DNA of 64,000 bases. It comes from Candidatus Altimarinota bacterium (lineage in GTDB: Bacteria; Patescibacteriota; Gracilibacteria; JBDHUY01). Below the pieces are notes generated by a model. The model made no database searches and was not told where the DNA came from. It saw nothing but the letters and a program-made list of their open reading frames with translations. The translations under genes and the position numbers were made by a program. The stretch spans positions 2,132 through 66,131 of the forward strand of contig JBDHUY010000011.1 of the NCBI GenBank assembly GCA_039809385.1, in the 5' to 3' direction. This document shows, piece by piece, positions 21,344 through 50,449 of this stretch. How positions within the stretch are numbered: position 1 is the stretch's first letter; each line of letters opens with the position of its first letter.

Positions 21344-22219
21344 ATGAACAAAGAAAATTCGATCATTATTTTCAATCAAAAAAACGTGCGGAGACATTGG
21401 GATGCAGATAAGGAACTTTGGTATTTTTCGGTTATCGATGTGATTGAGGTATTAACCGATTCAGCGGCACCAAGGCGGTATTGGAGTGATCTAAAAATCA
21501 AGTTGAAAAATGAAGGAAGTGAAGTGTACGAAAAAATCGTACAGTTGAAATTGACCGCTTCTGATGGGAAAAAACGAGAGACGGACTGTTTCTCGACCGA
21601 AGATCTATTTCGACTCGTTCAATCCATTCCTTCTCCAAAAGCAGAGCCCTTCAAGGTTTGGTTAGCAAAAGCGGGATATGAGCGTGTTGAAGAAACTGAA
21701 AATCCCGAACTATCCATTGATCGAGCTATGAAGACCTATTTGCAAAAAGGATATTCAAAGGAATGGATCAATCAACGGCTGAAAAGCATCGAGGTTCGCA
21801 AAGATTTGACGGATGAATGGCAGGAAAGAGGTGTACAGGAAGGACAGGAATACGCTATTTTGACCGACGAAATTACACGTGCCTGGGCTGGTTTTAGTGT
21901 CAAGGAATATAAAGAGTTTAAGAGCCTCGAAAAACAGAATTTGCGGGATAATATGACCAATCTCGAGCTGGTTTTGAATATGCTTGCCGAAGCCACAACT
22001 ACGGAAATTTCCAAGAAAAAACAACCCACAGGTTTTCATGAGAGTCGTATTGTAGCAAGAGAGGGCGGCGAAATAGCAGGTACTGCACGAAAGGGAATTG
22101 AACAGAAAACCGAGGAGAAAGTTGTCTCAAGGAAGAATGCTAAAGATCTGCTCATAAGAATTAAAGCACAAAAACAGTTGTCCAAAAAATTGAAGGACGG
22201 TAAAGAGAAAGAAGATTGA
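21344..22219 (+). CDS. Bro-N/antirepressor-like (DinD/RhuM-type) DNA-binding protein
   Basis: 'IFNQKNVRRHWDADKELWYFSVIDVIEVLTDS..PRRYWSDLK' is a Bro-N-like N-terminus. The C-terminus is charged and helical. Confidence 0.6.
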   Translation: MNKENSIIIFNQKNVRRHWDADKELWYFSVIDVIEVLTDSAAPRRYWSDLKIKLKNEGSEVYEKIVQLKLTASDGKKRETDCFSTEDLFRLVQSIPSPKAEPFKVWLAKAGYERVEETENPELSIDRAMKTYLQKGYSKEWINQRLKSIEVRKDLTDEWQERGVQEGQEYAILTDEITRAWAGFSVKEYKEFKSLEKQNLRDNMTNLELVLNMLAEATTTEISKKKQPTGFHESRIVAREGGEIAGTARKGIEQKTEEKVVSRKNAKDLLIRIKAQKQLSKKLKDGKEKED

Positions 22220-22240
22220 GAGTGAGCTCAAGTGAAAGTA

Positions 22241-22287
22241 GCGCCGAGGGCCCCGCTTGGGCGCGACGACACAAGGATTTTCAGTGC
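22241..22287 (-). repeat. Degenerate copy of the tRNA-Phe 3' half (anticodon arm + acceptor 3' strand, T arm replaced)
   Basis: The reverse complement has ACTGAAAATCCTTGTGTCG (19/19 identical to the tRNA) and CCCTCGGC (8/8). The T arm is replaced by TCGCGCCCAAGCGGGG. Confidence 0.8.
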
Positions 22288-22294
22288 ATTAAAC

Positions 22295-22369
<75 letters not shown>

Positions 22370-36425: not shown

Positions 36426-36806
36426 TCAGACCTCATCGACCCATGAATATAAAAGCTCGCGGGATACTTTTTCCGGCAGCCAATGTGTAAGGACTTCCGG
36501 GGAACAGATAAGCTGATATTGATCTTCGTAGAAAGGAGTATCGATGTCTGGCAAGACATAAACCCAGAGTTCACCCTGAATTACCGAAATATGCCAGTCG
36601 AATAATCCGGATTCCAGATATTTCTTCCATCCCTGTTTCTTCCAGAACGAGATCGCGCCTGGAAAGTCCTGTCCCCGCCGGGGCAACCACGAACCGTCGG
36701 GTTTGTGATTTCTGCGCGGATCATCGCGAGGGCAGAACTCGTCGACTGCCTGATAGAGACCAAGACACTTTCCCTTATTTTTGACGATAAACCGTACCAG
36801 CGCCAT
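36426..36806 (-). CDS. Hypothetical protein (Trp-rich, soluble)
   Basis: 126-aa ORF, last gene of the co-directional cluster. Confidence 0.45.
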   Translation of the reverse strand: MALVRFIVKNKGKCLGLYQAVDEFCPRDDPRRNHKPDGSWLPRRGQDFPGAISFWKKQGWKKYLESGLFDWHISVIQGELWVYVLPDIDTPFYEDQYQLICSPEVLTHWLPEKVSRELLYSWVDEV

Positions 36807-36818
36807 GAGGAGAGGCAG

Positions 36819-37730
36819 TTAAGCAGACTGTATCTTCTGTATCAAAATTTTATACAGTAATTGTCGGAAAAAACCGAAAGGAACGCGATCCTGACCACTC
36901 ACAGTATCCAGCACCAGATTAAGTACTTCCCCATGTTCAATGACTCCTGCGGCCAGCTGGGTCAAACTGTGATCATCAAGAAGAGTTTTATTAGTAGATT
37001 TCATGATCAGTAAGATTTCTTGGTACCTTCCTTTGGCAAGACACAAGGACCATAGAAGAGACCAAACATAGTCGGGAGCGTTGATTTCTCTGCAAACTTT
37101 AATTACACCCGAAAAATCATCTTTGGAAAAGTCCCGCTGCTTAAAAGTGGTATCTATCAGATGTGAAAATTCGTGCTGGGGTAAAGAAGTGGCGACAGCA
37201 ATTGAAAAAGCGATAACGTAATCTCTATTCTCCAGAAATCTATCTGCTAGACCAACCGCCATTGGCTGTGAAAAGCCGGCCGGCTGCACGATACGCAAGA
37301 TATCAGAAGTATTGAAAATAGAGCAGGGACTAATATTTTTGTGATTTGCATACGCAAAATAGAGATCGAAGATTTCCATATATTTTTCTTCTTGGTATTG
37401 TCGTTCTTTGGCAATATGGAGTAGTGTCTCAATAGAAACAAGGTCCTTTTTTTGTAACATATAGTACCAGACCAGGTCGAGGTCATTGGTAGACACAGGG
37501 CCTAATTCTTGTAACTCTTCCAGAGAAAAATGAGAAGTTTTACGGTTCCTCAAATAGCTGATCAAATCAGCCGATGCGTTTTTTTCCGCATCTTTCATTC
37601 TCTGCATTTTTGGAGAATATTTATTTTCATAGGGCTCTCTTCTATCCGGCTGTTCTGGATTTGTCATAAGAAAACTGGTTATATACTCAATAGTTCTATT
37701 AATCCCGGGAAGTTTCGACAAACGACTCAT
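36819..37730 (-). CDS. Hypothetical helical protein
   Basis: 303-aa ORF, visibly AT-rich, no TM, no recognised motif. Confidence 0.5.
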   Translation of the reverse strand: MSRLSKLPGINRTIEYITSFLMTNPEQPDRREPYENKYSPKMQRMKDAEKNASADLISYLRNRKTSHFSLEELQELGPVSTNDLDLVWYYMLQKKDLVSIETLLHIAKERQYQEEKYMEIFDLYFAYANHKNISPCSIFNTSDILRIVQPAGFSQPMAVGLADRFLENRDYVIAFSIAVATSLPQHEFSHLIDTTFKQRDFSKDDFSGVIKVCREINAPDYVWSLLWSLCLAKGRYQEILLIMKSTNKTLLDDHSLTQLAAGVIEHGEVLNLVLDTVSGQDRVPFGFFRQLLYKILIQKIQSA

Positions 37731-37852
37731 CCAACTGTATCTGACTGTTAAAGGAATTCACACAGGTTTTTTAGGGCCTATATGAGAATTCATTGAGAAC
37801 CAAAATAAACTACACAGAACAGTGATAATAACTCATGAAAAACAAGAAATCA

Positions 37853-38491
37853 TTATTGAGTAGCCAATAATTTCATTTTTGTTCTGATTGTCTCTGCAGC
37901 GGTTTGATCTGGGAGATCAACAACAAGTTCTAAAACATCTTTCATATCTTGAGGAGATACCGTTTTTTTTACCATTGCCGTAACAATCATATCGTACTCT
38001 ATTGCGCTATCAGGATCCCACGGGTGGTAGGTATTAAAAAATTTCTTTAATTCTGGAATCGAACCGATCTTATGATCAAGCACAAATTTCAGTGCTTGTC
38101 TTACGAGGACAGTACAAGCTGGATTCTCACTAAACTGATAGTCCCAGTATTCACCAAGAGCAGTTTTAAACGTTTCAATAGAACTTACATCCTTGAGAAA
38201 TTTTTCGCCTAAAAACATCAAAGCCTCGGGAGCAAGATGTACTTTAGCGAAAAGGTTTAAATGTAGTTTATCTTGAGAAGACAAAGCTTTCAGTAGAGCT
38301 AATTGTGTGGCACTATCTGGAGGACAAAAGCGAAGAAAAGCAGTTAATAAGTCATTAGATGAGAATGTTGATAATTTATCTAGAGACATTTCACCTGCAA
38401 AGAGAGCAAGTGCTGTTGGGTTTCCAAATAAGTTGCTGACGTTTTCAAATTTTGTATCAAGAATAGTTGTTTGAATATCGGTTCCTTCCAT
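37853..38491 (-). CDS. Hypothetical helical protein
   Basis: 212-aa ORF, AT-rich, 24 nt downstream of the PKD gene. Confidence 0.5.
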   Translation of the reverse strand: MEGTDIQTTILDTKFENVSNLFGNPTALALFAGEMSLDKLSTFSSNDLLTAFLRFCPPDSATQLALLKALSSQDKLHLNLFAKVHLAPEALMFLGEKFLKDVSSIETFKTALGEYWDYQFSENPACTVLVRQALKFVLDHKIGSIPELKKFFNTYHPWDPDSAIEYDMIVTAMVKKTVSPQDMKDVLELVVDLPDQTAAETIRTKMKLLATQ

Positions 38492-38515: not shown

Positions 38516-40813
38516 TCATTCTACCCCTACCTGCTCACTAAACTGACTACTGATATTATCCTTACTCGTAATCGTCAGTACCACCATGTACGTTCCAGGA
38601 GTCGTAAAAACATGCGTCGGCTTACGGTCGGTAGAAACCGTACCGTCGCCAAAATCCCAGAAGTATTTAGCGATAGGACCATTCGACTCGGTCGGATCAA
38701 ACACCACGCTCAGCGGCGCCGCTCCGGTTTTTACATTGGTTTTAAAGCGAGCCACCACCGGAACCTCGGAGACAACGATATCCTGCGTGGCGGTCTCTTT
38801 TTTGGCATCGTTGGTAAAAACGGTGAGCTGTACTTTATAAACCCCTACCTGCGCAAAGGTATACTGTATCTGCGCCCCGTAGATCTTGGGCGGCGTTCCG
38901 TCGTCAAAATCCCACTGATACTGCGTAATCGTCCCGCCGTTATAGCGCGAAGCCGAAGCGTCAAAAAGAACAGTTAACGGCGCCGCTCCCGAAAGAGGGC
39001 TGGCTTTGATAATCGCCTCCAGAGGTTTGGCTTTGGTTTTAATCAAAATAGTCTGGGACACCTCGTTTTGCTGCGCATCCACAACTTTGAGCGTAACGGT
39101 GCGCTCCCCTTCCTCATAAAAAGTCTGCACGTCAGGCTTGGCGCCCCTGGTCTCGAAATTGCCATCGCCGTCAAAGTCCCACTGATAATCCACGATATCG
39201 TTATCCTTGTCGGTCGAGGCCGAAGCGTCAAACGTCACCGCTAAGGGCACGCTGCCTTCGATCACGGCTCCGCTTGCCCCCTGCTTGAAACTCGGCGTGG
39301 TTTTCAGCTGAATCACCGGCGACGAAGTTTTGCCCTTTACTATGATATCGACCGAAGACGATCCCTGATTGGATTTGTCGTCGGTAAGGGCGAGATTTAC
39401 TTTATAGGTACCCGGTTTTTTAAACGTATGGGTCGCGGTCACCGTCTTCTCCCGCAGAGTATTATCGCCAAAATCCCATTCGTATTTAACGATTTTACCT
39501 GCCGGACTGCGCGATTCGGAGGCATCGAAATTTACAGTCAGCGGGGCATCCCCTTCCATCGGAACTGCCAGAATTGAGGCTTTGACAGTATCGTCGCGTA
39601 CGCCGGTGATCGTAATGACTTTTTCGGCTGTATTGTACTTTTTATCGCGATTTTCAACCCGTAAACGCACCGTATAGGTTCCGATTGTCTCGAACGTATA
39701 GGTAAGCTTGGGCGTTGTACCCTCGTTAAAACGGTTATCGCCGTCGATCTCCCAGGCATACGTGACATCTTTAGGGTCCTGGCTGTTGGGATCGTAAGAC
39801 TCTGAGGCGTCTAATGTTACTGTCAGAGGTGCCTCGCCCTTGTCTTTATCGACGTTGATGACGGCTACCGGCAACAAATAGGCAATCGATATGTTCTTTT
39901 TGAATTGTTGCGTTTTTTCTTCTCCTTTGTTATCAACGGCGGTAATCGTGAGGGTAACCGGATAATTCCCGGCTTTAAATGTTTTGTCGTAATTCCAGCG
40001 CTCTTCCTTGCCGCCGATCCGGTCGCTCTTGCCGTCGCCGGTAAAATCCCAGTCGTACTTTACGATCTCGTAACCGCGGGTAAGTTTATTTTCCAGATTG
40101 GAGGCGTCAAAAATGAGTTCGATGGGCGCGGTGAGACCGGTCGTGACAGCGAGAGGTTCACGCGTTTGCGCATTATAGACCACGATATCCCCTTGAATAG
40201 CCGAATTGCCATCCACCCGTACCTGTCCGATACTGAAAAACGCAAACACCCAGATAACGATATCGACCAGCAGAATCAGGGTTGTAATAAAAATGGCAAT
40301 CGTGGTTTTTCGTTTTCCGGCCTTGTCGTCCTTGTGGGTCAGAATACGACGAAAAATATTGACCACGACAGCGATCAGCAGCAGCATCGAAAAGAATCCG
40401 AAGCTGATATTGACCAGGCTGCTCAGCAGATTTTTGACTGCGGCCGGATCCAGGCCGAGCTGTTTAAAGAAAGGATTGTTCGGATCGCCGTTAAACGCGA
40501 ACACCGAGAGTAAAACGAACAAAACGAAGAGAAAAGCGAATAATCCGAAACAGCCCAAAAAGAAACCGGCTCCGATCTTCTTGCCCTTGACCACTTTTTT
40601 CCCGGCAGGCCTGGTCTGGTTTGGCGCAGCTTGAGTTGCCGGAGTTTCTGTCATAGGCTGAGTCGGTTGAGAAGAAGCAGCATTGGTAACAGGAACAGAT
40701 GTATTAACCTGAATATCCTCTGCCAACGGACCGATATTGTTGGTACCGGGAACGGTATCACCAGAAGCAGGCTCTGGATTTTGAGGCGGAGGATTGGGAG
40801 TAGGCGTATCCAT
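38516..40813 (-). CDS. PKD-repeat membrane protein (disordered N-tail, 3 TM, six PKD domains)
   Basis: Six 'Y.W[DE][FI][DGT]' PKD cores: YDWDFTGDG, YAWEIDGDN, YEWDFGDNT, YQWDFDGDG, YQWDFDDGT, YFWDFGDGT. Pro/Thr/Gln-rich N-terminus. TM segments GFFLGCFGLFAFLFVLFVLLSVFAF and others. Confidence 0.85.
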   Translation of the reverse strand: MDTPTPNPPPQNPEPASGDTVPGTNNIGPLAEDIQVNTSVPVTNAASSQPTQPMTETPATQAAPNQTRPAGKKVVKGKKIGAGFFLGCFGLFAFLFVLFVLLSVFAFNGDPNNPFFKQLGLDPAAVKNLLSSLVNISFGFFSMLLLIAVVVNIFRRILTHKDDKAGKRKTTIAIFITTLILLVDIVIWVFAFFSIGQVRVDGNSAIQGDIVVYNAQTREPLAVTTGLTAPIELIFDASNLENKLTRGYEIVKYDWDFTGDGKSDRIGGKEERWNYDKTFKAGNYPVTLTITAVDNKGEEKTQQFKKNISIAYLLPVAVINVDKDKGEAPLTVTLDASESYDPNSQDPKDVTYAWEIDGDNRFNEGTTPKLTYTFETIGTYTVRLRVENRDKKYNTAEKVITITGVRDDTVKASILAVPMEGDAPLTVNFDASESRSPAGKIVKYEWDFGDNTLREKTVTATHTFKKPGTYKVNLALTDDKSNQGSSSVDIIVKGKTSSPVIQLKTTPSFKQGASGAVIEGSVPLAVTFDASASTDKDNDIVDYQWDFDGDGNFETRGAKPDVQTFYEEGERTVTLKVVDAQQNEVSQTILIKTKAKPLEAIIKASPLSGAAPLTVLFDASASRYNGGTITQYQWDFDDGTPPKIYGAQIQYTFAQVGVYKVQLTVFTNDAKKETATQDIVVSEVPVVARFKTNVKTGAAPLSVVFDPTESNGPIAKYFWDFGDGTVSTDRKPTHVFTTPGTYMVVLTITSKDNISSQFSEQVGVE

Positions 40814-41119: not shown

Positions 41120-44100
41120 TCACTCCGAGTGAAGCGAAGAGTCTGTCTCCTGCCCATGCTTATTGGGCCCATTATACGGCAAATTCGGTTTCTTTTGAAA
41201 GGGCTTTGCACCGAACTTTTTATAGGGAGGAGTTGGGCGAGTAAACGGCCGTTGAGAGGAAGAAAGCTGTTTCGTATTGTTATTATTCCCGGGCGGCAGT
41301 TCGGGGAAATTTTGTCCGGGCGGCAGTTCCTGCTCGGCGAAGCGTCCTTTGATTTCGGGAGTATTGAAGTTCGGTTTCGGCGGAAACTTTTTAGGATAGG
41401 GTTTATACGGTTTTTTTTGAAATGGCTTTTTTGACTTCCACGGTTGCGAGGATGTTGGTTTCGACACAGGTTTTTGCGCTTCGGGGGAAGATGGCACCTC
41501 AGGCAAAGTAGTCTCGGAAACCGGGGGGAGATTTGCATCTACGACAGGTGCAGGAGGAGGCAGGGCATCCGGTGTACCTGCAGTACCGGTCGGCTGGTCT
41601 GCACTGTCTGCAACAAGAGGTTCAAACGGAGACGTGGCAATGCCGGAAGTAGGCGGCAGGGAATCGGAGTTGAGAGATCGATCTGGAACAGATGACGCCG
41701 GTTCAGTAGGCGTCAAAAAATCAGGTATGGCGGCATCGGCCGGTTGAGAGACTGGCAGAGGTGTAGGAGGAAATATGCCAAAAGGATCGTCGTTAACAGT
41801 AGGAAAGGAAGAACCGGCAACGGCAGGCGAATCTGAGAAGGAGGGCATGGCCGGAGTTTGAGCAGATGTTGGAGATACTACCCCAGCGAAAGGATCTGGG
41901 GTTGTCGAAGAAGAGGACGTCGAGGCTGCAGGTTGATCTCCGAAAATATCGATATCAAACGGAGAGGCCGGAACACTCGGATTAGACGGGGCAGGATCTA
42001 AGAAAGAGGGAGTAACCGCGGCTGAGGTGGCAAAAGGATCGACGGCTTGCGGAGGAGATGCCGGAGGGTTCTGATTTTTATCGGTACTTCCGAAAATATC
42101 AATATCAAAGGGCGATGGAGATGGAGGCGCGGGAGTATCAAGAAACGTAGAGGGTGTTGGCGGCAACGCCGAACCGAACGGATCGGATGCAGAAATAGAC
42201 TGCGGATCACTCGCACTCGGTCCGGATGAAAAGATATCGGTGTCGAAAGGAGAAGCAGGGCTTGCGGAAGACGTCGGATTCGGGACAGATGTATTCAGAA
42301 AATCAGGCTGGGGCGAAGCAGCAGCTCCAAATGAGCCGGTTTGCTGGTTGGAAGAACCGAAAATATCAATATCAAAGGGCGAAGGTGTTTGCGAAGGGTT
42401 TCCTGTCGCTGCGGATAGTGAAGGTGAAGGTGATGGTGTTGACGCAGCAAATGGATCGCCCGGTGCAGAAGGCTGCGAATTATTTCCCGGTCCGCTTTGA
42501 GAAAAAATATCCGTATCGAAAGGAGAAGAGGCGCTGATTCCGGGAGTAGGCGCATCCCCAAAAGGAGTTGCTCCGGAGGCGACAGGTGGATCTAAAAAGG
42601 AAGGCAAGCTTGCGGAATCGTCGGGAGACGTGCCGGGAGACGGCGGGGAGAAATCCAGAAAAGACGCTGTAGGCGGCGTGCCAGACTCTGGGGAAACAAC
42701 AGGATTTGCAGCAGGCGGAACTGTCCCTTCACTCGAATCAGTCGCTCCTATCTGAAGCCAATCGGGCATCTGGCCTGCCGAAGCCTGAGGAGGTTCGGCA
42801 GGGGTCGCGGGAGCTGGAGGCTCGGCAACTGGTTCGAAGTTCCCATCGGGAGAAGGAATCGGTGTAACGTCGATGACCGAAGGTGGGGTACTCTTGGGAG
42901 GTTCGGGCTTCGAAGATGCCTGAGCTTGGTCGCCTTCGTCTTTTTTACCTGGCCTGAATCGAGAGATCCAACCGGTTACCATACCCCGCAAATCCAGAAT
43001 AAACTCTTCAAAATCGAGATCTTCCCGGTTGGTAATACGTTTATACGCTATAAACGAAACAAACAGCACGATTCCCAGAAACAGGAAAATGCCGATAATC
43101 CAAAGCGCGAACTGCAAAATACCGAAGAGAAAGGACAAAAACAGATTTTCCCCTGCCGGTGCGGGTGATGAAGGGCCTTCTGCTGCTGCTCCGTTTTGAT
43201 TCTCGTTGGTAACAGTGCCCGGTTCCGCATTAAGATTGTCATTGGTATTGGCAGTTTCGGGAGCATTGAGGTTTAGATTAGCATCGCCGTTCTGATTAGA
43301 ATTAGCCGTAAGCACGGGAGTCAGAGAGTCGGCAATCACCAAAAGTACGTTACCTACTTGCTGTTTGGCATCGTCAGGTAATTTCTGACTTTCGGCAACA
43401 GCCGTGCGAGTCTCGTCCAAAGCCTGGGAAACCGCGGCAGCATCGATTCCGTAATTCGACTTAAGCGATATCAGCGCTTTATTGACTTTTATTTTGGTCA
43501 AAGGTTCGGCCTCGGCAATAATATTTTTGATACGCTGAATCGAAGAATCGATATCGATAAACGATTCTTTCAGGTCTAAAATGTTCTGGATATTACCGAC
43601 CAGACGGTCTCTTTGTTCTTGAGTAAGCTGTTCTGCGCGCAGGACCAGCTCCTTGGCCTGTGTCAGTGCGTCCTTGTCACCGCGGGATAGGAGTTCGCGG
43701 ATCTGGTTCTGTAGCTCCTGGGACAGAGAACTCTGCGAGATGGCCGTAACAGCATCGTCGAGATTTTTATTGATAATTTCGGTTTTGGAAGGCTGCGGAT
43801 TAGCATTGAGATTGGCATTTTCGGGCAGGACGACCGCGTCGTCGAAAATAATGGGAACCGTTACCTGATCCATGATATTGTTATCGCCGACAACGGTAAG
43901 CTGTACCTCGATCGGCTGAGGCAAAAAGGTATACGATATGCCCGAACCATTGGTAAAAGAAAGGGTATTTTTATTGTCGATATCGTTATTTTTGATACCG
44001 TCTCCGTCGCTATCCTGAAAAACATTGCGATCGATGCGGTATTCGCGGATTTTACCGATCGAATAACCGCCAAAGAACGTTACCTTGTTTTTTTCACGGG

Positions 44101-47100
44101 TGAGGTGAATCTTCCGGTCAAGTTCATTTACTTCGGGGACGGTAATCAATACAGCCTGTAACGATTTAGACGGATCAAGTTGGACATTCTTAGGCAACTG
44201 CCCTTTGACCAGCGTAACGGTTCGAACTACGTTGTCTTTTATTCCTCCTTTGCCCGTGACGTCGAGTCGCACCTGATAGCTGCCATAGTCGTTAAACGTA
44301 AATTGAGGATTTTCCTCCTGGCTGTCTTTGTCATTTTGAGCGCTGCCATCACCGTCGCTGTCACGCGAAAGATCGAAGTCCCAAGTATAAGAAAGAGGGG
44401 CAGGGCCGCTGGAATTATTGAGAAACAGAACAGTTTTATCGACCTGAGTAAACAGAAAAGCGGCAGTGGCAATACTTTCGGAACGGGGGTTAATCAATAC
44501 CGAAACGTTGCCCTTGTTGCTCAATCCTTGATATTCGACCCGGGCAGTCACATTGTAATTTCCCGGAGTATCGTACACTCGCGTGACATAAGCCCCCGAC
44601 GTCGTATCTTCGAAAGTTCCGTTCCCGTCAAAGTCCCAGGAAATCCGGGCATCGGGAACCGGTTCGCCTTTCGCGTTCCGACCGATCGCGGTAAACTGAA
44701 CCGCTTCGCCAGCCTTGACGCTGGTTTTATTAACGCTGACCTCTACCTGCAGGGGCTCGTTAGCACGGTTTGTTACGGTCAATACTCCGGTATTTTCGCC
44801 CAGCACATCATCGCTCCGCACAACCGCCCCCTCGTTATCGGTCATTTCGACGACAAAACGATAGGTAACGCTCTGACCGCCAAAACCGCGCGTAGGAATA
44901 TTAAACGTGGTAGAAGGAGTGGTAGTAGTACGCACGCTCAGATTTTCTTCGGTACCGTTTTCGACATAAAACCATTTATACGAAACGATTTTGCCGTCAC
45001 GGTCGGTTGCCCCCACGGCACGCACGGCGACTTGCACCGGAGTCAATAGCGACGCAGGCGCGTCCAATACCAGATCGGTGAGCTGAGGAGGCCGGTTGCG
45101 TACAGCGACCAGAAGGGGCGAAGCACTGGCAGTTTTACCCGAATCTCTGTCGGTAATCGTAAGTTGTACCGAAAAACAAGTATTGCCGGACACGTCGTTA
45201 AAACGGTGCGTAATCGTTTTTTTGGTACTGACGGTTCCGTCGCCGAAATTCCAGGAATATTCCAGAAAGCGGCTGGAGCCGTCACGGTTGATAGCACGCG
45301 AAGCGTCAAAACTGGGATTATCGTTACGGGAAATCAGGAGCCCCGGCCCGCCGTTACACAAATTAGGCGTAAGCGGTAACATTTCACCGTTCAAACTATA
45401 GTCGATCAAGGCTACGGGGCTGTCGGCTTCTCCGACATACACATTGGTCGTGGTCGTAGTATCGTTATTATCTTTGTCAAAAACGGTAACTTTGACAGGG
45501 TAAACCCCGGCTGTCTTGAAACGATAGGTATATTGCGTTTTATCCGTCTGCTCTTTCTGTTCACCGAAATCGTAAAGATAAAAGATGGCACCGGGAGCAT
45601 TGACTTTGACGGTAACGTCTTTGCCAACCTGAGTGACCGGCGGATCGATCGTGACATCGGCGCTGAGTACTGATGTAATCGAGACAGTCTGCTCCCGCTC
45701 CACGAAATTTTGCGAAGAATCGGTCACGCGTAATTTTACACGGTATTCTTTGGCTGCCGGAAAACGATATTCTCCCCGGCTGCCGGCCTCGTTCGTATTT
45801 TCCAGCGTAACCGGTGTACCATCTACCAGCCAGGTAAACGAGAGCGTTTCATTTTGATCGGGATCATAAGAATTAGTCGCGTCAAAGACAAACTGATTTG
45901 GATGTCCGACATCTTTCTGTTTGAGAGACAAAGTAACAACCGGCGGCTTGGAAGTCACTTTGACTTGACGAGTATCCTGAACGGTTTTGCCGTCATTATC
46001 CGTGACTTGGAGCAAAGCCGTATAGACACCCGGCGTCTCGAATTTGTAAGTAAAGCTTTCTTCTTTCGTCTCGCGCAGAACTTCACCCGCTCCGGTCGTG
46101 ATTTTCCAGCTGAGCGAATTGACTCCGCTGGGGATCTTTGACGTATTGGCGGCAAAACGGAACGTCGTATCGGTAGTACCTTCTTGGGGGGTAATTGTGG
46201 CCGAGGCGATCGCATCGGCCACCTCGACCGTTATACTTTTGACGATCTTTTGATTTCCGGTATCCGTGAACTGGACCGCAACCTGGTAACGACCGACTTT
46301 GTTATATTTATGCGTTATCGAAACCGGCGTTCCGTTAAAACTCTGACGATTACTGCCATCGCCAAATTCCCAGTCGGTTTTGGCGATATCGAGTCCCACG
46401 GTCGAGCTGGTGCCGGCAGGATCGAAGAGCAGCCCGTCCTGAGCTTCTTTGAGGGTTACTTTGACGAGATCTTCTTGGGTAACATCGACTTGATTGATTT
46501 TTAGCTGAACTGTCGCCAGGGGTGCTTCGGCTTTGACGCTGATGGTAGCATCCCCGGGCAAAACGACACTGTCGCCGCTGGCACTCTTGACTTCCAGATG
46601 CACCACATACGTATTAGGAACCCGAAAGGTTTCCGAGACGTTGGCACCGTTTCCTAAGTCGCGGCGCTGCCCGCTGGAATCGAGATACCACCAGCTGTAA
46701 TTGTTCGTAGGAATCGTATTGTTGGTCGGATCGGAAGAAGAGGCTCCGTTAAAGAGAACAGTGAGCGGAATTGGCCCGGAGCTTTTACTGGCATTGATTA
46801 CCGCACGCATCTGAGGCAGTTTGACTACCTGCTGCTTGAGAGTCTCGATTTTGGTTTGAATGTCACGACCGGTCGAAGAAGAAGGACTTTGCTGGTAAGT
46901 CTGCAGTGCGTCGTCCAGTTCCTGAGCAGCTTGTCCTGCCTGAGAGGTAGGAGGTAATTGTTGAATGATCGGCTGAAGTTGCTCACGATAACGGTCGATA
47001 ATTGTTTTGGATTCGCTTTGGGGACGAGAGCGTAACTCTTGCAACAACTGGCTCAAAATCCGATCCAAATCCTGGGCGGTATTACCGGTAGCGCTGGTAA

Positions 47101-47986
47101 CTCCCCCACTCGAGGAAGTTCCCTGACCGGCATTTAACAATTGTTCCAGTGCGTTCAAAGCTTTTTTCAGATCGTCACTATTTTGAGGACTGGGATTGGT
47201 CTTGAATTTGTCGAGCGCCTGTAAAACCGCCTGTAACTGCTGGGCCGACGCATTCTGGAGCGACGAATCAAGTTGCTTTATGGTAGTCTGTAACTGAGTT
47301 TTAAGTGCGTCGATTTCGCGTTCGAGAGTACCGGTATCGGCGGGCGGATTATTGACGGTGTTATAAATATTATTAATCGTGGGTGCGGCCGGATTGCTGC
47401 CAGTACCGCTACTGCTCCCCGAGGAGCTGGAAGAAGAAGACGATCCGCTTCCCGAAGAACCTGAAGAAGAGCTCGAGGCATTTGAGCCCGAAGAAGAGCT
47501 TGAACTGCTGGTGTTGGTAGAAGTGCTACTACCGGATGGCGGACCGTCGATAACATTGACGAAAAAATTGACGATAGCATAGGAGATCAGAATAATCACG
47601 ATGCCGACGCCGGTAAACACGATCGTCTTTTGAGATTTCTTGACCTCGCCGTCGTTGCCGGCAAAGGCTACCATGCGGAACCCGGCGTAGATTACGATAA
47701 CGACCGCCAACAGCCCCAGAAATGTCAGAAAATAGTTGATGATCGTGGTGACGGCTTTGCGAATCTCGTCGTTTTTTCCCTGTTCGCAAATCGTCGGAAA
47801 TTTCACGCAATCTTCTTCTTCAAGGCCGGGCCCGGTCGGAACACCGTTAAACTGAGCGGAAGCATGCGGAATATGCAAAACAAAGAGCGTTCCAGCCATC
47901 AGCACTAAAAATAATACTCCCTGCAGGCGCCGAAAAAGCGAGGAAAAACGATTCGACAAGTACTGTGAGTTATAATCAAACGACAT
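41120..47986 (-). CDS. Giant (2288 aa) surface protein: signal peptide, pilin-like hairpin module, Ser-rich linker, coiled coil, about 10 PKD/Ig-like domains, membrane anchor, long disordered Pro/Ser-rich tail
   Basis: Single uninterrupted ORF. N-terminal 'AVTTIINYFLTFLGLLAVVIVIYAGFRMVAFAGNDGEVKKSQKTIVFTGVGIVIILISYAIVNFFVNVI'. PKD cores (DWEFGDGS, YSWNFGDGT, ISWDFDGNG, YTWDFDLS...). TM 'FLSFLFGILQFALWIIGIFLFLGIVLFVSFIAYKRI'. Confidence 0.9.
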   Translation of the reverse strand: MSFDYNSQYLSNRFSSLFRRLQGVLFLVLMAGTLFVLHIPHASAQFNGVPTGPGLEEEDCVKFPTICEQGKNDEIRKAVTTIINYFLTFLGLLAVVIVIYAGFRMVAFAGNDGEVKKSQKTIVFTGVGIVIILISYAIVNFFVNVIDGPPSGSSTSTNTSSSSSSSGSNASSSSSGSSGSGSSSSSSSSGSSSGTGSNPAAPTINNIYNTVNNPPADTGTLEREIDALKTQLQTTIKQLDSSLQNASAQQLQAVLQALDKFKTNPSPQNSDDLKKALNALEQLLNAGQGTSSSGGVTSATGNTAQDLDRILSQLLQELRSRPQSESKTIIDRYREQLQPIIQQLPPTSQAGQAAQELDDALQTYQQSPSSSTGRDIQTKIETLKQQVVKLPQMRAVINASKSSGPIPLTVLFNGASSSDPTNNTIPTNNYSWWYLDSSGQRRDLGNGANVSETFRVPNTYVVHLEVKSASGDSVVLPGDATISVKAEAPLATVQLKINQVDVTQEDLVKVTLKEAQDGLLFDPAGTSSTVGLDIAKTDWEFGDGSNRQSFNGTPVSITHKYNKVGRYQVAVQFTDTGNQKIVKSITVEVADAIASATITPQEGTTDTTFRFAANTSKIPSGVNSLSWKITTGAGEVLRETKEESFTYKFETPGVYTALLQVTDNDGKTVQDTRQVKVTSKPPVVTLSLKQKDVGHPNQFVFDATNSYDPDQNETLSFTWLVDGTPVTLENTNEAGSRGEYRFPAAKEYRVKLRVTDSSQNFVEREQTVSITSVLSADVTIDPPVTQVGKDVTVKVNAPGAIFYLYDFGEQKEQTDKTQYTYRFKTAGVYPVKVTVFDKDNNDTTTTTNVYVGEADSPVALIDYSLNGEMLPLTPNLCNGGPGLLISRNDNPSFDASRAINRDGSSRFLEYSWNFGDGTVSTKKTITHRFNDVSGNTCFSVQLTITDRDSGKTASASPLLVAVRNRPPQLTDLVLDAPASLLTPVQVAVRAVGATDRDGKIVSYKWFYVENGTEENLSVRTTTTPSTTFNIPTRGFGGQSVTYRFVVEMTDNEGAVVRSDDVLGENTGVLTVTNRANEPLQVEVSVNKTSVKAGEAVQFTAIGRNAKGEPVPDARISWDFDGNGTFEDTTSGAYVTRVYDTPGNYNVTARVEYQGLSNKGNVSVLINPRSESIATAAFLFTQVDKTVLFLNNSSGPAPLSYTWDFDLSRDSDGDGSAQNDKDSQEENPQFTFNDYGSYQVRLDVTGKGGIKDNVVRTVTLVKGQLPKNVQLDPSKSLQAVLITVPEVNELDRKIHLTREKNKVTFFGGYSIGKIREYRIDRNVFQDSDGDGIKNNDIDNKNTLSFTNGSGISYTFLPQPIEVQLTVVGDNNIMDQVTVPIIFDDAVVLPENANLNANPQPSKTEIINKNLDDAVTAISQSSLSQELQNQIRELLSRGDKDALTQAKELVLRAEQLTQEQRDRLVGNIQNILDLKESFIDIDSSIQRIKNIIAEAEPLTKIKVNKALISLKSNYGIDAAAVSQALDETRTAVAESQKLPDDAKQQVGNVLLVIADSLTPVLTANSNQNGDANLNLNAPETANTNDNLNAEPGTVTNENQNGAAAEGPSSPAPAGENLFLSFLFGILQFALWIIGIFLFLGIVLFVSFIAYKRITNREDLDFEEFILDLRGMVTGWISRFRPGKKDEGDQAQASSKPEPPKSTPPSVIDVTPIPSPDGNFEPVAEPPAPATPAEPPQASAGQMPDWLQIGATDSSEGTVPPAANPVVSPESGTPPTASFLDFSPPSPGTSPDDSASLPSFLDPPVASGATPFGDAPTPGISASSPFDTDIFSQSGPGNNSQPSAPGDPFAASTPSPSPSLSAATGNPSQTPSPFDIDIFGSSNQQTGSFGAAASPQPDFLNTSVPNPTSSASPASPFDTDIFSSGPSASDPQSISASDPFGSALPPTPSTFLDTPAPPSPSPFDIDIFGSTDKNQNPPASPPQAVDPFATSAAVTPSFLDPAPSNPSVPASPFDIDIFGDQPAASTSSSSTTPDPFAGVVSPTSAQTPAMPSFSDSPAVAGSSFPTVNDDPFGIFPPTPLPVSQPADAAIPDFLTPTEPASSVPDRSLNSDSLPPTSGIATSPFEPLVADSADQPTGTAGTPDALPPPAPVVDANLPPVSETTLPEVPSSPEAQKPVSKPTSSQPWKSKKPFQKKPYKPYPKKFPPKPNFNTPEIKGRFAEQELPPGQNFPELPPGNNNNTKQLSSSQRPFTRPTPPYKKFGAKPFQKKPNLPYNGPNKHGQETDSSLHSE

Positions 47987-48007: not shown

Positions 48008-48457
48008 TTATCCCCGTACCGCATTGATCACGGTAGTGACCAGAGCATACGCTATCAGAATAATGATAATACCGGTTAGAATGGCGATGATCAGTTTTGT
48101 CGCTTTTTGGCGATTACCTTCATTATTAAACGATGTGATATACAAAACGCCGGCATAAATAATACCTACTACCGCAATTAGGAAAATGAATCCCAGACCA
48201 AACTGAATCCATCCGAAAATCAACGCGCGGGCATTGGTTGTAGTTGAGACATTTCCCGACAACTCGTTCTTCGTCGCATCGATTCCGGGCTGGATACCGC
48301 ATTCGTCTCCCTGGCAATAGGGATTTTTACTATCGAAAGCCGTATCGGTATTGGAAAAATCCGTATTCTGGGCATGCACGTTCAGTGGTACATGTATCGT
48401 CGACAGCATGCTCCATATAAAGATCATTGCTCCTATGTGAATAATCTTTTTATTCAT
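48008..48457 (-). CDS. T4SS-pilin-like (TrbC/VirB2-like) protein, single module
   Basis: Signal peptide, then 'LIFGWIQFGLGFIFLIAVVGIIYAGVLYITSFNNEGNRQKATKLIIAILTGIIIILIAYALVTTVINAV'. Confidence 0.7.
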   Translation of the reverse strand: MNKKIIHIGAMIFIWSMLSTIHVPLNVHAQNTDFSNTDTAFDSKNPYCQGDECGIQPGIDATKNELSGNVSTTTNARALIFGWIQFGLGFIFLIAVVGIIYAGVLYITSFNNEGNRQKATKLIIAILTGIIIILIAYALVTTVINAVRG

Positions 48458-48524
48458 TTTGATCGAGTATAAACGCCAAATTATTCAGAAAATTATACCA
48501 TATACATCCTCTTCTATACAACGA

Positions 48525-49433
48525 CTATCCCGAATTTAACAACGGTGCGGCAAAAAAGGTGACGATAGTATAGGCGCTGACCAGCAATGCCAGTCCCAAT
48601 ACTACCCACAGGATGGTTTTGCGCGCCTTTTGAACTTTTTGATCGTTCCCAAAATTCACGATCATGTTGATGGCGGCATAGAGCAGCATCAATATTCCCG
48701 AAATCGCGCTGAAACCGAGGATATAATTGACGACTTGCAATACCAGACTAATCGCGCCGGACGGATTGGGATTAACCGAAGTTTCACCGTAGAAATTCTG
48801 AATGAGCGGGCGCGCTATCAAAATCACAATCAGACCGAATGTCGTTGGAATAAATACCCGTTGTAATTTTTTGATCCGGGCCTCGTCGCCCAGGGCCGTG
48901 ATCATGCGTACCCCGCTGATAATGATCACAAAAACGGCGGTGATTGCCAGAAAACTGAGGAAAAAACTCAGGAGCGGATTGACTATCCGTTCGCGAATGT
49001 CGTCCGGAAAATCGCGGATATCGTTGACGGAACGTCCGCTTGGCGTAAAGAAGATTGAGACGATGACCTCAGCTACTTGCATGAGGATCAGACCGAACAG
49101 CAAAATAAAAATACCGGTCAAACTTTTTTTATTCGCATCGGCATTACCGCCGGCGGTCACCATCCGCAATCCCGATATGATGATGAGCAACACGGCTATT
49201 ACCGCGATAAAACTTTTTACCACTCCGGCATAGTAGATCAGAATATCCCGAAGTCCCTGGGCGCCTTCGGTGCTGACCGGAGCATTAAAGGCTTGATCGG
49301 GAGTACCTAAAAGAAAATCAAAAACACTACGCGGATCTTGCTGGGCATAGGTCGCCGGGAGAGCCACACAGCAAAATGCCAATCCTGCCAAAACAAGCGC
49401 TACTGCCAATGGAAAAGAAAAACGCTGTTTCAT
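48525..49433 (-). CDS. Membrane protein with three tandem pilin-like hairpin modules
   Basis: Signal peptide plus 3 units. Examples: VVKSFIAVIAVLLIIISGLRMVTAGGNADANKKSLTGIFILLFGLILMQV and VVNYILGFSAISGILMLLYAAINMIVNFGNDQKVQKARKTILWVVLGLALLVSAY. Confidence 0.7.
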   Translation of the reverse strand: MKQRFSFPLAVALVLAGLAFCCVALPATYAQQDPRSVFDFLLGTPDQAFNAPVSTEGAQGLRDILIYYAGVVKSFIAVIAVLLIIISGLRMVTAGGNADANKKSLTGIFILLFGLILMQVAEVIVSIFFTPSGRSVNDIRDFPDDIRERIVNPLLSFFLSFLAITAVFVIIISGVRMITALGDEARIKKLQRVFIPTTFGLIVILIARPLIQNFYGETSVNPNPSGAISLVLQVVNYILGFSAISGILMLLYAAINMIVNFGNDQKVQKARKTILWVVLGLALLVSAYTIVTFFAAPLLNSG

Positions 49434-50392
49434 AATATTATAGGTGCGGCAAATTTCAGAACTTCGGTAACTACCGTATAGGCAGAATAGATGATCACCA
49501 TAGCAATCAGCGTTCCCTGGACTATTTTGATCCCTTTCGTGCGCAGGGAATCGTTCGCTCCCGAAAAGATAAAATAAAATCCGCCCAGGATTAGTCCGGC
49601 AAATCCGATCGGGACAACAAAAAGAAGCATTAAACGCAGCAGGGATCCGATCACCCCGTGACCTCGTTCGACATCGCCTTCGAAAGCGATACGCTGGAAT
49701 TCTCCGGCCAGGGCAATCACGATCAACCCCAGAATACTCCAGAGTATTTGGCGACGGTACTTCGCGGCAGCATCATCGGCACCGCTGGCACTACTGATCA
49801 CGATTTGGTATCCGCTGATAATAATCGATACGATCGCGACGGTCCCGGCAATGCCCCTCAACGCCGTGATAACGATGCTGATAATATTTTTCCAGTCGAA
49901 CAAACTGGGTTCGTTGAGGCCGGCGCGGGGGACAAACGAGGCGAAAAAGAACTCTCCGACATTCAGGAAGATAAACCCGACCACGGCGTACAAAAGTCCC
50001 AAACGCGCTTTTTTACTGGCTTCGTCGTTAGCGGAAAAGACCATCCGGATACCGAAAAAAAGTATATAAAAAACCGCAACTCCCTGAAACAATATCCGGG
50101 TTGTCGGCAAGGCTTGATTGCGTACAAAATCGTTAAACGTATTATTCCCGTTCGTCGAATTTAATTCCGGTAAACTGGTACCCGGCAGATCAAAAGCTGC
50201 CTGGGTGAGAAAGGGGATCGTAAAAATTCCCGCAATAAAGAGAAAAACCGCTAGGACAAAGAATATGTTCTGCGCTGATCTGGCATTTTTTTCCGAAAGA
50301 AAAGCAGCAAATCGATTTCCCGGAGATCGTAAAACGAAATTCTTCGGAACATGTACGGGTTGGCGACTATGTTTTTGGTATGTGTATTGCAT
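49430..50392 (-). CDS. Membrane protein with three tandem pilin-like hairpin modules
   Basis: 3 units. Examples: VAVFYILFFGIRMVFSANDEASKKARLGLLYAVVGFIFL and FAGLILGGFYFIFSGANDSLRTKGIKIVQGTLIAMVIIYSAY. ATGA overlap with the next gene. Confidence 0.7.
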   Translation of the reverse strand: MQYTYQKHSRQPVHVPKNFVLRSPGNRFAAFLSEKNARSAQNIFFVLAVFLFIAGIFTIPFLTQAAFDLPGTSLPELNSTNGNNTFNDFVRNQALPTTRILFQGVAVFYILFFGIRMVFSANDEASKKARLGLLYAVVGFIFLNVGEFFFASFVPRAGLNEPSLFDWKNIISIVITALRGIAGTVAIVSIIISGYQIVISSASGADDAAAKYRRQILWSILGLIVIALAGEFQRIAFEGDVERGHGVIGSLLRLMLLFVVPIGFAGLILGGFYFIFSGANDSLRTKGIKIVQGTLIAMVIIYSAYTVVTEVLKFAAPIIL

Positions 50393-50449
50393 TTATATAT
50401 AATCCGTTTATTGTAGCACAAGATATTTTTTTTATCAAAGCCGGGAACT

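Follow-up and report, generated by a model that had tools for sequence, protein, structure and literature searches.

Pilin hairpins of the T4SS_pilin family fused three to a polypeptide in a conserved Peregrinibacteria cassette

A cassette of consecutive genes encoding type IV secretion system (T4SS) pilin hairpins lies on the minus strand of a 64,000-nucleotide stretch of DNA from Candidatus Altimarinota bacterium (GenBank assembly GCA_039809385.1, contig JBDHUY010000011.1, positions 2,132 to 66,131), which at its full length is referred to here as the window. Three of the genes are adjacent open reading frames (ORFs) whose products of 320, 302 and 149 amino acids are designated p320, p302 and p149, the pilin hairpin modules within them being numbered m1 to m3 from the N- to the C-terminus. 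The first, p320 (49430..50392), starts with an N-terminal anchor or long leader, in which a transmembrane (TM) helix at approximately residues 43-63 is followed by TQAA/FD, and continues with three modules, p320_m1 (residues 81-162, DNA 49907..50152), p320_m2 (residues 163-244, DNA 49661..49906) and p320_m3 (residues 245-320, DNA 49433..49660). The second, p302 (48525..49433), overlaps it by four nucleotides, its start codon (ATG) and the p320 stop codon (TGA) running together in ATGA at 49430..49433, and has a Sec signal peptide (..ATYA/QQ) ahead of p302_m1 (residues 53-135, DNA 49029..49277), p302_m2 (residues 136-219, DNA 48777..49028) and p302_m3 (residues 220-302, DNA 48528..48776). The third, p149 (48008..48457), is a free single-module pilin, in which a signal peptide (..NVHA/QN) and a spacer of about 40 residues precede one hairpin (residues 64-149, DNA 48011..48268) of the canonical free or 'last' type (L19, Y68; see below). 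An earlier reading made from the sequence alone (the sequence-only reading) had described these three adjacent ORFs, their lengths, the ATGA overlap and six loop sequences from the fused proteins, all of which were found exactly as it gave them.

A fourth pilin-module gene follows directly downstream on the same strand, after a gap of 21 nucleotides. It encodes a giant pilin-PKD protein of 2288 residues (41120..47986), with a signal peptide and one pilin hairpin at its N-terminus (residues 65-153, DNA 47528..47794), followed by serine-rich and coiled regions, seven PKD domains (Pfam PKD_4, 188.7 bits in seven stretches), a long TM segment at residues 1613-1652 and a 636-residue tail rich in proline and serine. 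The last conserved gene of the cassette encodes a 765-residue PKD-repeat protein (38516..40813, minus strand; PKD_4, 253.6 bits in six stretches).

All of the modules genuinely belong to the T4SS_pilin family. Scored as whole proteins, p302 (45.0 bits) and p320 (41.6 bits) each match PF18895 (T4SS_pilin, gathering score 26.6 bits) in three stretches, while p149 reaches 21.9 bits, which is below threshold, and the N-terminus of the giant protein 26.1 bits. A search module by module, as proposed in the sequence-only reading, returned PF18895 as the top family for seven of the eight and as the second for p302_m1. Taken singly, three modules exceed the gathering score (35.6, 33.6 and 27.5 bits), the giant-protein module alone scoring 27.5 bits; the others lie between 15.6 and 24 bits, and the p149 module alone stays below threshold (to 23.9 bits). 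The gathering score of PF04956 (TrbC/VirB2, 27.9 bits) is not reached by the window modules, the best of which score 22.5, 21.4 and 20.9 bits, although it is exceeded by relatives of the same architecture, namely a 558-residue protein (34.6 bits, locus L005) and a protein with eight modules (51.2 bits, locus L009). The VirB2/TrbC-like identity that had been proposed for the modules is supported as homology to the T4SS_pilin/VirB2-like family, with the caveat that the PF04956 threshold is passed by the relatives and not by the window's own modules. Among the NCBIfam models, NF045849 (Mbov_0395 pilin-like conjugal transfer protein, cut-off 40 bits) is the best match for all four pilin-module proteins, with 45.9 bits for p302 (summed over three stretches), 38.0 for the N-terminus of the giant protein, 28.7 for p149 and 26.9 for p320.

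Because TM hairpins may resemble one another by composition alone, an independent family hidden Markov model (HMM) was built from 693 modules whose parent proteins belong to neither of the window's two orthologue families, and was searched against all window ORFs of at least 70 residues together with reversed decoys (388 targets, E≤10). All eight window modules were recovered at 40-64 bits (independent E-values of 1e-12 to 1e-19), specifically 40.9, 43.7 and 40.1 bits for the modules of p320, 46.5, 61.5 and 63.5 bits for those of p302, 57.3 bits for p149 and 64.5 bits for the giant-protein module, whereas no other window ORF of that size and no reversed decoy matched at this cut-off. The window thus contains exactly eight modules (3+3+1+1), which share only 17-35% identity and a similarity far beyond chance. 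This statement relies on the independent HMM and not on full-shuffle z-scores for module pairs, which inflate significance because shuffling also breaks up the helix-loop-helix blocks. The 3+3+1 arrangement of the sequence-only reading is borne out by the three PF18895 stretches in each fused protein and by these scores, and the further module that it had mentioned in the giant protein is real.

The hairpin layout is equally apparent from hydropathy, which gives a signal or anchor helix and six TM helices for p302 and p320, and a signal peptide and two TM helices for p149, in line with the signal peptide and single module previously ascribed to it; the giant protein likewise starts with a signal sequence followed by a hairpin. 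An AlphaFold2 model of p302 from a 52-sequence alignment (mean predicted local distance difference test score, pLDDT, 75.7; predicted template modelling score, pTM, 0.53) comprises three hairpins, H57-93/98-128, H142-179/184-215 and H224-259/264-300, and the p149 module is modelled as one hairpin (pLDDT 80). Foldseek comparison of the p302 model with the PDB gave only weak matches to 14-3-3-like helical repeats (best E 0.27, TM-score approximately 0.2), the p149 single-module model retrieved generic helical hairpins without any pilin among them (best E 1.5), and a search of PDB sequences with the module profile yielded nothing beyond chance TM matches (E≥0.23). Over 726 modules from all positions the loop between the two helices has the consensus G-[DN]-E-E-x3-K-A-K-K, with conserved glycines flanking it in both helices. 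Given a cleaved signal peptide, the only consistent topology would be one in which the N-terminus is outside, the lysine-rich loops are cytoplasmic and the connectors are outside, and the fused proteins would accordingly be predicted to repeat the VirB2 topology three times over.

The p302 and p320 polypeptides consist of little beyond the hairpins and short, length-conserved, slightly acidic connectors. In 149 proteins with three modules (3x proteins), the connectors have median lengths of 19 and 18 residues from TM end to TM end (interquartile ranges 17-22 and 16-21) and a mean net charge of -1.6, while the median length of the C-terminal tail is six residues; in the p302 model 13 and 8 non-helical residues lie between the hairpins. 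The conserved connector residues are P143, P153, F214-Y215-G216 and P222, the set in connector 1 being unlike that in connector 2. These features bear on the possibility that the fused proteins are polyprotein precursors, with connectors that would be cleaved after membrane insertion to free single pilins, the fusion merely securing equimolar synthesis. Related lineages do hold both fused arrays (Peregrinibacteria) and unfused ones (the Saccharibacteria loci L006 and L008), and both proteolytic maturation and cyclisation are known for VirB2-family pilins (PMC12037004). However, the connectors contain no A-x-A-type or other repeated cleavage motif, are short and in part helical continuations of the TM segments, and differ from one another in their conserved residues, and the inner modules have diverged from free pilins (see below), which would not be expected if they ended up as such. 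We consider a precursor role unlikely.

The locus is a conserved pilin cassette of Peregrinibacteria, a lineage of the candidate phyla radiation (CPR, or Patescibacteria). A single p302 sequence found no match among genome contigs, and its relatives were recovered with an alignment as query; p302 has orthologues of about 300 residues at 38-45% identity and p320 has orthologues at 40-67%. In two relatives, a 228-kb ENA contig (L001) and a Logan contig (L002), the gene order is that of the window: queA, a 3x protein of 302 residues, a 3x protein of 303 residues, a single-module (1x) pilin of 149 residues, a pilin-PKD protein of 1738 residues and a PKD protein of 750 residues. A third locus, L003, has a 3x protein, a 1x pilin and a pilin-PKD protein of 2147 residues; this protein and its 1738-residue counterpart in L001 are orthologues of the giant protein with the same layout. 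Two adjacent 3x genes are retained even in L004 (323 and 384 residues) and L005 (317 and 558 residues), where identity has fallen to 24-28%. The window's p320 and p302 are two old paralogous three-hairpin proteins. The relatives are placed by GTDB in Candidatus Peribacteria, phylum Peregrinibacteriota. L005 (8090..10770) is the most divergent of the paired 3x loci; downstream of its fused genes, a 361-residue protein without assignment and a 530-residue SLH-domain protein take the place of the free pilin and PKD proteins, and YidC (60KD_IMP) is encoded 2 kb upstream.

A longer fusion was found in L009 (metagenome contig Ga0265297_10004127, 8001..14557), the locus of the top hit in the exhaustive search described below, where an uninterrupted ORF of 820 residues under genetic code 11 contains eight PF18895 stretches (223.5 bits) and is followed by a 1x pilin (155 residues), a pilin-PKD protein (383 residues) and a PKD protein (718 residues). 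This is the cassette of the window with its fused part expanded, one eight-module (8x) ORF replacing the two 3x genes. Conversely, L006 and L008 have six to eight separate single-module genes instead of fusions. That tandem single-module genes exist in relatives, and that some CPR lineages use alternative genetic codes, could suggest that the fusions are artefacts, in which gene calling, a frameshift or stop read-through has joined single-module genes. This explanation is effectively refuted: under code 11 no stop codon interrupts the ORFs of the window, those of L001-L005 or the 8x gene of L009, and the architecture recurs across independent NCBI, ENA, JGI and Logan assemblies. The fusions are genuine ORFs, conserved down to approximately 24% identity.

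Nor is the fused architecture rare. A profile search returned 49 proteins, nearly all of 260-330 residues, with PF18895 and usually PF04956 among their precomputed assignments; where named at all, they are called 'hypothetical protein [Candidatus Peregrinibacteria]' or 'pilin'. When a single-module profile was run exhaustively against 1.84 billion representatives, 42,896 proteins matched (E≤1e-3), and the best 150 of these all have three or more modules, so that the survey for 3x architectures suggested in the sequence-only reading yields at least 150 representative clusters. Among these 150, three modules is the commonest count, and proteins with 4, 5, 6, 7, 8, 10, 11 and 17 stretches also occur; judged by a module HMM of our own the maximum is 11 modules per protein. 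The window genes are hence ordinary members of a lineage-wide architecture and not a one-off, and fused multi-hairpin proteins stand in public databases as 'hypothetical', 'uncharacterized' or 'pilin', a seven-module protein for example having been deposited as 'Uncharacterized protein [Candidatus Peregrinibacteria bacterium]'. The extreme case, P0080 (1775 residues, NCBI), has 17 stretches in the exhaustive search and 11 clear ones by our own module HMM; the figure derives from the protein sequence, and read-through or mis-assembly is possible for this extreme. The cluster of P0100 (1382 residues, 10-11 modules) includes P0203, or MCK4491598.1, which is attributed to a metagenome-assembled genome of a Candidatus Altiarchaeales archaeon, indicating either that the architecture is present in archaea too or that the bin is contaminated.

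The modules of a fused protein are not equivalent to one another. A best-hit test of orthology by module position was uninformative, since close orthologues made its result diagonal, and it was replaced by leave-family-out HMMs. Position-specific models built from one paralogue family and scored on all other 3x proteins placed module 3 correctly in 127/142 and 118/145 cases, modules 1 and 2 being less differentiated, which shows the third module to be a distinct, inherited position. Both p149 and p302_m3 find their best matches in the 1x pilin and in the last module of the 8x protein, while inner modules best match inner modules, and the giant-protein module best matches the pilin-PKD module of L009. 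Colinearity of the window's eight modules with the eight single genes of L008 was also looked for and was not found, most modules having their best match in the same one or two of those genes.

Three positions distinguish the two kinds of module in 202 multi-module proteins. Position 19 is leucine in 75% of last modules and lysine or arginine in 52% of inner ones; position 36 is leucine or methionine in last modules and arginine or lysine in 60% of inner ones; and position 68 is tyrosine or phenylalanine in 77% of last modules and mostly acidic or polar in inner ones. Free pilins are of the last-module type, L19 being present in 15 of the 24 single-module pilins from the fetched loci, Y/F68 in 16 and a basic residue at position 19 in none. 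Positions 19 and 68 are equidistant from the loop, one in each helix, and in inner modules a basic residue at 19 tends to go with an acidic one at 68 (odds ratio 6.1; Fisher p approximately 1e-19, uncorrected for phylogeny), position 68 being the best covariation partner of position 19 among all positions. In the window the charged pair is present in p302_m1 (K/E) and p320_m1 (R/E), whereas p302_m3, p320_m3, p149 and the giant-protein module have L/Y. Inner modules thus carry a derived, co-varying basic-19/acidic-68 pair, while the last module retains the free-pilin signature, and the fused proteins follow an (inner)n + terminal pattern and are not strings of equivalent pilins.

The main rival to a role in a filament is that p302 and p320 form a membrane-embedded platform or pore, that is, pilin-derived polytopic subunits of the inner membrane (VirB6/VirB3-like, or a pilus base) that anchor or nucleate the assembly of p149 and the pilin-PKD protein but are not themselves extruded. 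We regard this as a real, if tentative, possibility. A co-varying buried ion pair (K/R19-E/D68) together with R/K36 is what might be found where the inner modules pack into a stable polytopic bundle, the last module alone keeps the free-pilin signature, and the wide range of module numbers (3 to approximately 17) is easier to accommodate in a scaffold than in a helical lattice. In some Patescibacteria classes, moreover, few or no VirB6 homologues are reported, 'suggesting extreme sequence divergence' (PMC12102498). A separate free pilin is always part of the cassette, and may have a promoter of its own: an extended -10-like element, TGgTATAAT (48492..48500, minus strand), seen by eye about 35 nucleotides upstream of the p149 start, is a putative internal promoter, from which p149 might be transcribed apart from, and more strongly than, the fused pilins. 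A second promoter-like site, TTGATA-17-TACAAT with a TG extension (50410..50438, minus strand), lies directly ahead of the p320 start codon, in the intergenic region between p320 and the divergently oriented queA; its score, the best at 10/12, reflects a match to the consensus only. Against a platform, p302 and p320 have no match to VirB6/TrbL or VirB3 families at E≤1 in Pfam and NCBIfam, nothing of the pilin loop signature or of the glycine pattern is lost in the inner modules, and there are almost no loops or domains outside the membrane. VirB6/TrbL proteins are likewise multi-spanning proteins of the inner membrane, with at least five to six TM helices, as predicted for p302 and p320, but they share no sequence similarity with them, lack internally repeated hairpins and usually have large loops or domains.

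Comparison with other known systems places the cassette closest to the VirB2 arrays of Patescibacteria. Quinonero-Coronel et al. (2025, PMC12102498) reported VirB2-like pilins in 1,948 Patescibacteria assemblies and counted 441 arrays, each of 2-11 pilin genes, and in Southlakia epibionticum a series of predicted pilins within a T4SS cluster is essential (Wang et al., 2023, PMC10633639). With four consecutive, divergent pilin-module genes the window has such an array. Like those arrays, of which the one in the SEML1_0006-0019 cluster of S. epibionticum ML1 is an example, it consists of divergent PF18895 hairpins encoded side by side in a chromosomal context and provided with signal peptides, and the identity between its modules (17-35%) compares with an average of 25% among array pilins (PMC12102498). 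It differs in that six of its eight hairpins are covalently joined (3+3), up to eight being joined in the verified L009 ORF, and in that it is not beside virB4 and is coupled to PKD proteins, one of which has a pilin hairpin of its own. The absence of an adjacent virB4 is not unusual, since a pilin lies near virB4 in 1135 of the 1948 assemblies (PMC12102498). Published surveys of these arrays tally genes and not modules, the table in PMC12102498 having one row per protein without module counts.

A further comparison is with the canonical conjugative pilins VirB2/TrbC/TraA (PF04956; cyclic T-pilin, RP4 TrbC and TrhA), a class that polymerises into a helical pilus outside the cell, usually with phospholipid in stoichiometric amount. 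On the combined evidence of hydropathy, AlphaFold2 and the loop consensus, the window proteins resemble them in having a leader and a pair of hydrophobic helices separated by a short charged loop in which lysine is conserved, but known members are single small hairpins (mature length approximately 70-120 residues) whose genes cluster with VirB4 and mating-pair-formation genes, beside the T4SS machinery of diderm bacteria, whereas p302 and p320 have three hairpins in each uninterrupted ORF and are neighboured by queA, gidB and PKD proteins. To our knowledge, the structurally known conjugative or T4SS pilins are all single hairpins. The Mbov_0395 family of Mycoplasma integrative and conjugative elements (NF045849) has a similar VirB2-like hairpin and also belongs to a wall-less or monoderm lineage, but it is a single-module protein of mobile elements, whereas the window genes are chromosomal, multi-module and outside any such element. 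Sortase-assembled pili of Gram-positive bacteria offer an analogy only, as surface fibres of covalently linked subunits; there sortase links globular Ig-like pilins after translation, whereas here membrane hairpins are linked genetically, and there is no homology.

The cassette is surrounded by housekeeping genes (among them queA, gidB, SHMT, EF-P, enolase, PNPase, MutS, sigma-70 and DnaG), and GC content shows no anomaly along the window. The sole recognisable T4SS-type motor in the window is an 866-residue ATPase of the VirD4/VirB4 superfamily (3541..6141, minus strand), 42 kb from the cassette, which matches DUF87 (41.3 bits), TrwB_AAD_bind (38.9 bits) and TrwB (1e9r, E 1.2e-6), with sub-threshold NCBIfam matches to TraD/VirD4/CedD/VirB4; no further T4SS component was found by Pfam and NCBIfam searches of the window's unannotated ORFs. 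The genes on either side of the ATPase encode a GT2 glycosyltransferase and a PEGA-domain protein. The constant presence of PKD proteins in the cassette, together with the constant absence of a motor, is what might be expected if the hairpin arrays were a T4SS-independent adhesin anchor, a membrane raft for PKD surface proteins that has no secretion motor. The SLH-domain protein downstream of the paired 3x genes in L005 would suit such a role, as would the second TM anchor of the giant protein. Yet the family sits in T4SS clusters of other Patescibacteria, where it is essential (PMC10633639, PMC12102498), a VirD4/VirB4-type ATPase is encoded in the window itself, and eight hairpins far exceed what anchoring needs, all of which makes this explanation very unlikely.

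The interpretation that we favour, and whose chances of being right we judge to be about even, is that p302 and p320 are pilin oligomers linked in advance, which assemble together with p149 into a filament or stalk of the T4SS type, with the pilin-anchored PKD protein as adhesin. Under this interpretation Sec and YidC would insert p320 and p302 with both N- and C-termini outside, where they would act as pre-linked pilin trimers; a T4SS-type motor would then extract the trimers and stack them with p149 into the wall of a pilus or stalk, and the giant protein would join by means of its own pilin hairpin and display its PKD domains for attachment to host cells. Because the connectors are short, linked hairpins would be forced to be direct neighbours, and the local order and stoichiometry of subunits would therefore be fixed. 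Concatenation may also be geometrically feasible: in cyclic pilins the protein's own N- and C-termini are joined and so lie close together (PMC12037004), and by analogy close termini would be a precondition for joining hairpins head to tail. A broader proposal is that concatenation is a general way in which CPR bacteria build T4SS-type filaments, following an (inner)n + terminal grammar in which n is 2 in the window, 7 in L009 and possibly as high as about 16 elsewhere, and where inner modules would be locked by the ion pair and the terminal module would keep the free-pilin interface. This generalisation is conceivable, though we are doubtful of it.

Several observations weigh against assembly of the fused proteins into a filament. 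Charged residues lie inside the predicted TM helices of inner modules, and the hydrophobicity of these modules (1.9) is slightly below that of last modules (2.1-2.2), properties that would also suit a bundle permanently embedded in the membrane. At a pTM of only 0.53, the p302 model does not establish how the hairpins pack against each other, and neither sequence nor fold searches tie the modules to any solved pilin. There is no T4SS motor beside the cassette in the window, L001, L005 or L009. We know of no precedent for pulling a six-helix membrane protein into a filament. Finally, no pilus has yet been seen for any Patescibacteria T4SS, and reviews speak of a possibility, a Patescibacteria pilus being an 'intriguing possibility' in the words of one from 2025 (PMC12857230).

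Some further features of the window lie within or near the cassette. The tail of the giant protein, after its C-terminal TM segment, contains five copies of SPFD[TI]DIF[GS] at a spacing of approximately 45 residues (residues 1822-2015; 41942..42523, minus strand), which could be a repeated short linear binding motif; a regular-expression search did not find it in the giant-protein orthologues of L001 or L003. Downstream of the PKD gene are three same-strand ORFs of 212, 303 and 126 residues (36426..38491, minus strand) without Pfam or NCBIfam match, and no counterparts of them follow the cassette in L001. At some distance, a plus-strand ORF of 291 residues with a BRO-N domain, typical of phage and mobile-element proteins, adjoins a tRNA-Phe gene (22295..22369, minus strand; the region spans 21344..22369).

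The arrays described in published work are all made up of separate pilin genes, and the fused architecture and its inner/terminal pattern appear to be undescribed. As the sequence-only reading had supposed for head-to-tail triplets, no description of fused, tandem or concatenated T4SS pilins was met with in the literature found, in which subscription journals are poorly covered, so that this absence is no proof.

The T4SS pilin arrays of Patescibacteria have been shown to be indispensable to an epibiotic lifestyle, but no filament has been observed. Naturally fused pilins supply direct neighbour constraints, because the adjacency of hairpins is written in the gene, and a single tagged fused polypeptide would report on three subunits at once. 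The contrast between the K/R19-E/D68 and L19/Y68 signatures is likewise a testable structural prediction. Fusion also raises a mechanistic question, namely whether a T4SS can extract a six-helix or even a sixteen-helix protein from the membrane; if the chains truly enter the pilus, the machinery must be capable of extracting polytopic multi-hairpin substrates, and the order of subunits in the filament would be genetically hard-wired. The fixed association with PKD proteins, in turn, suggests that such a filament would be the attachment device of these episymbionts.

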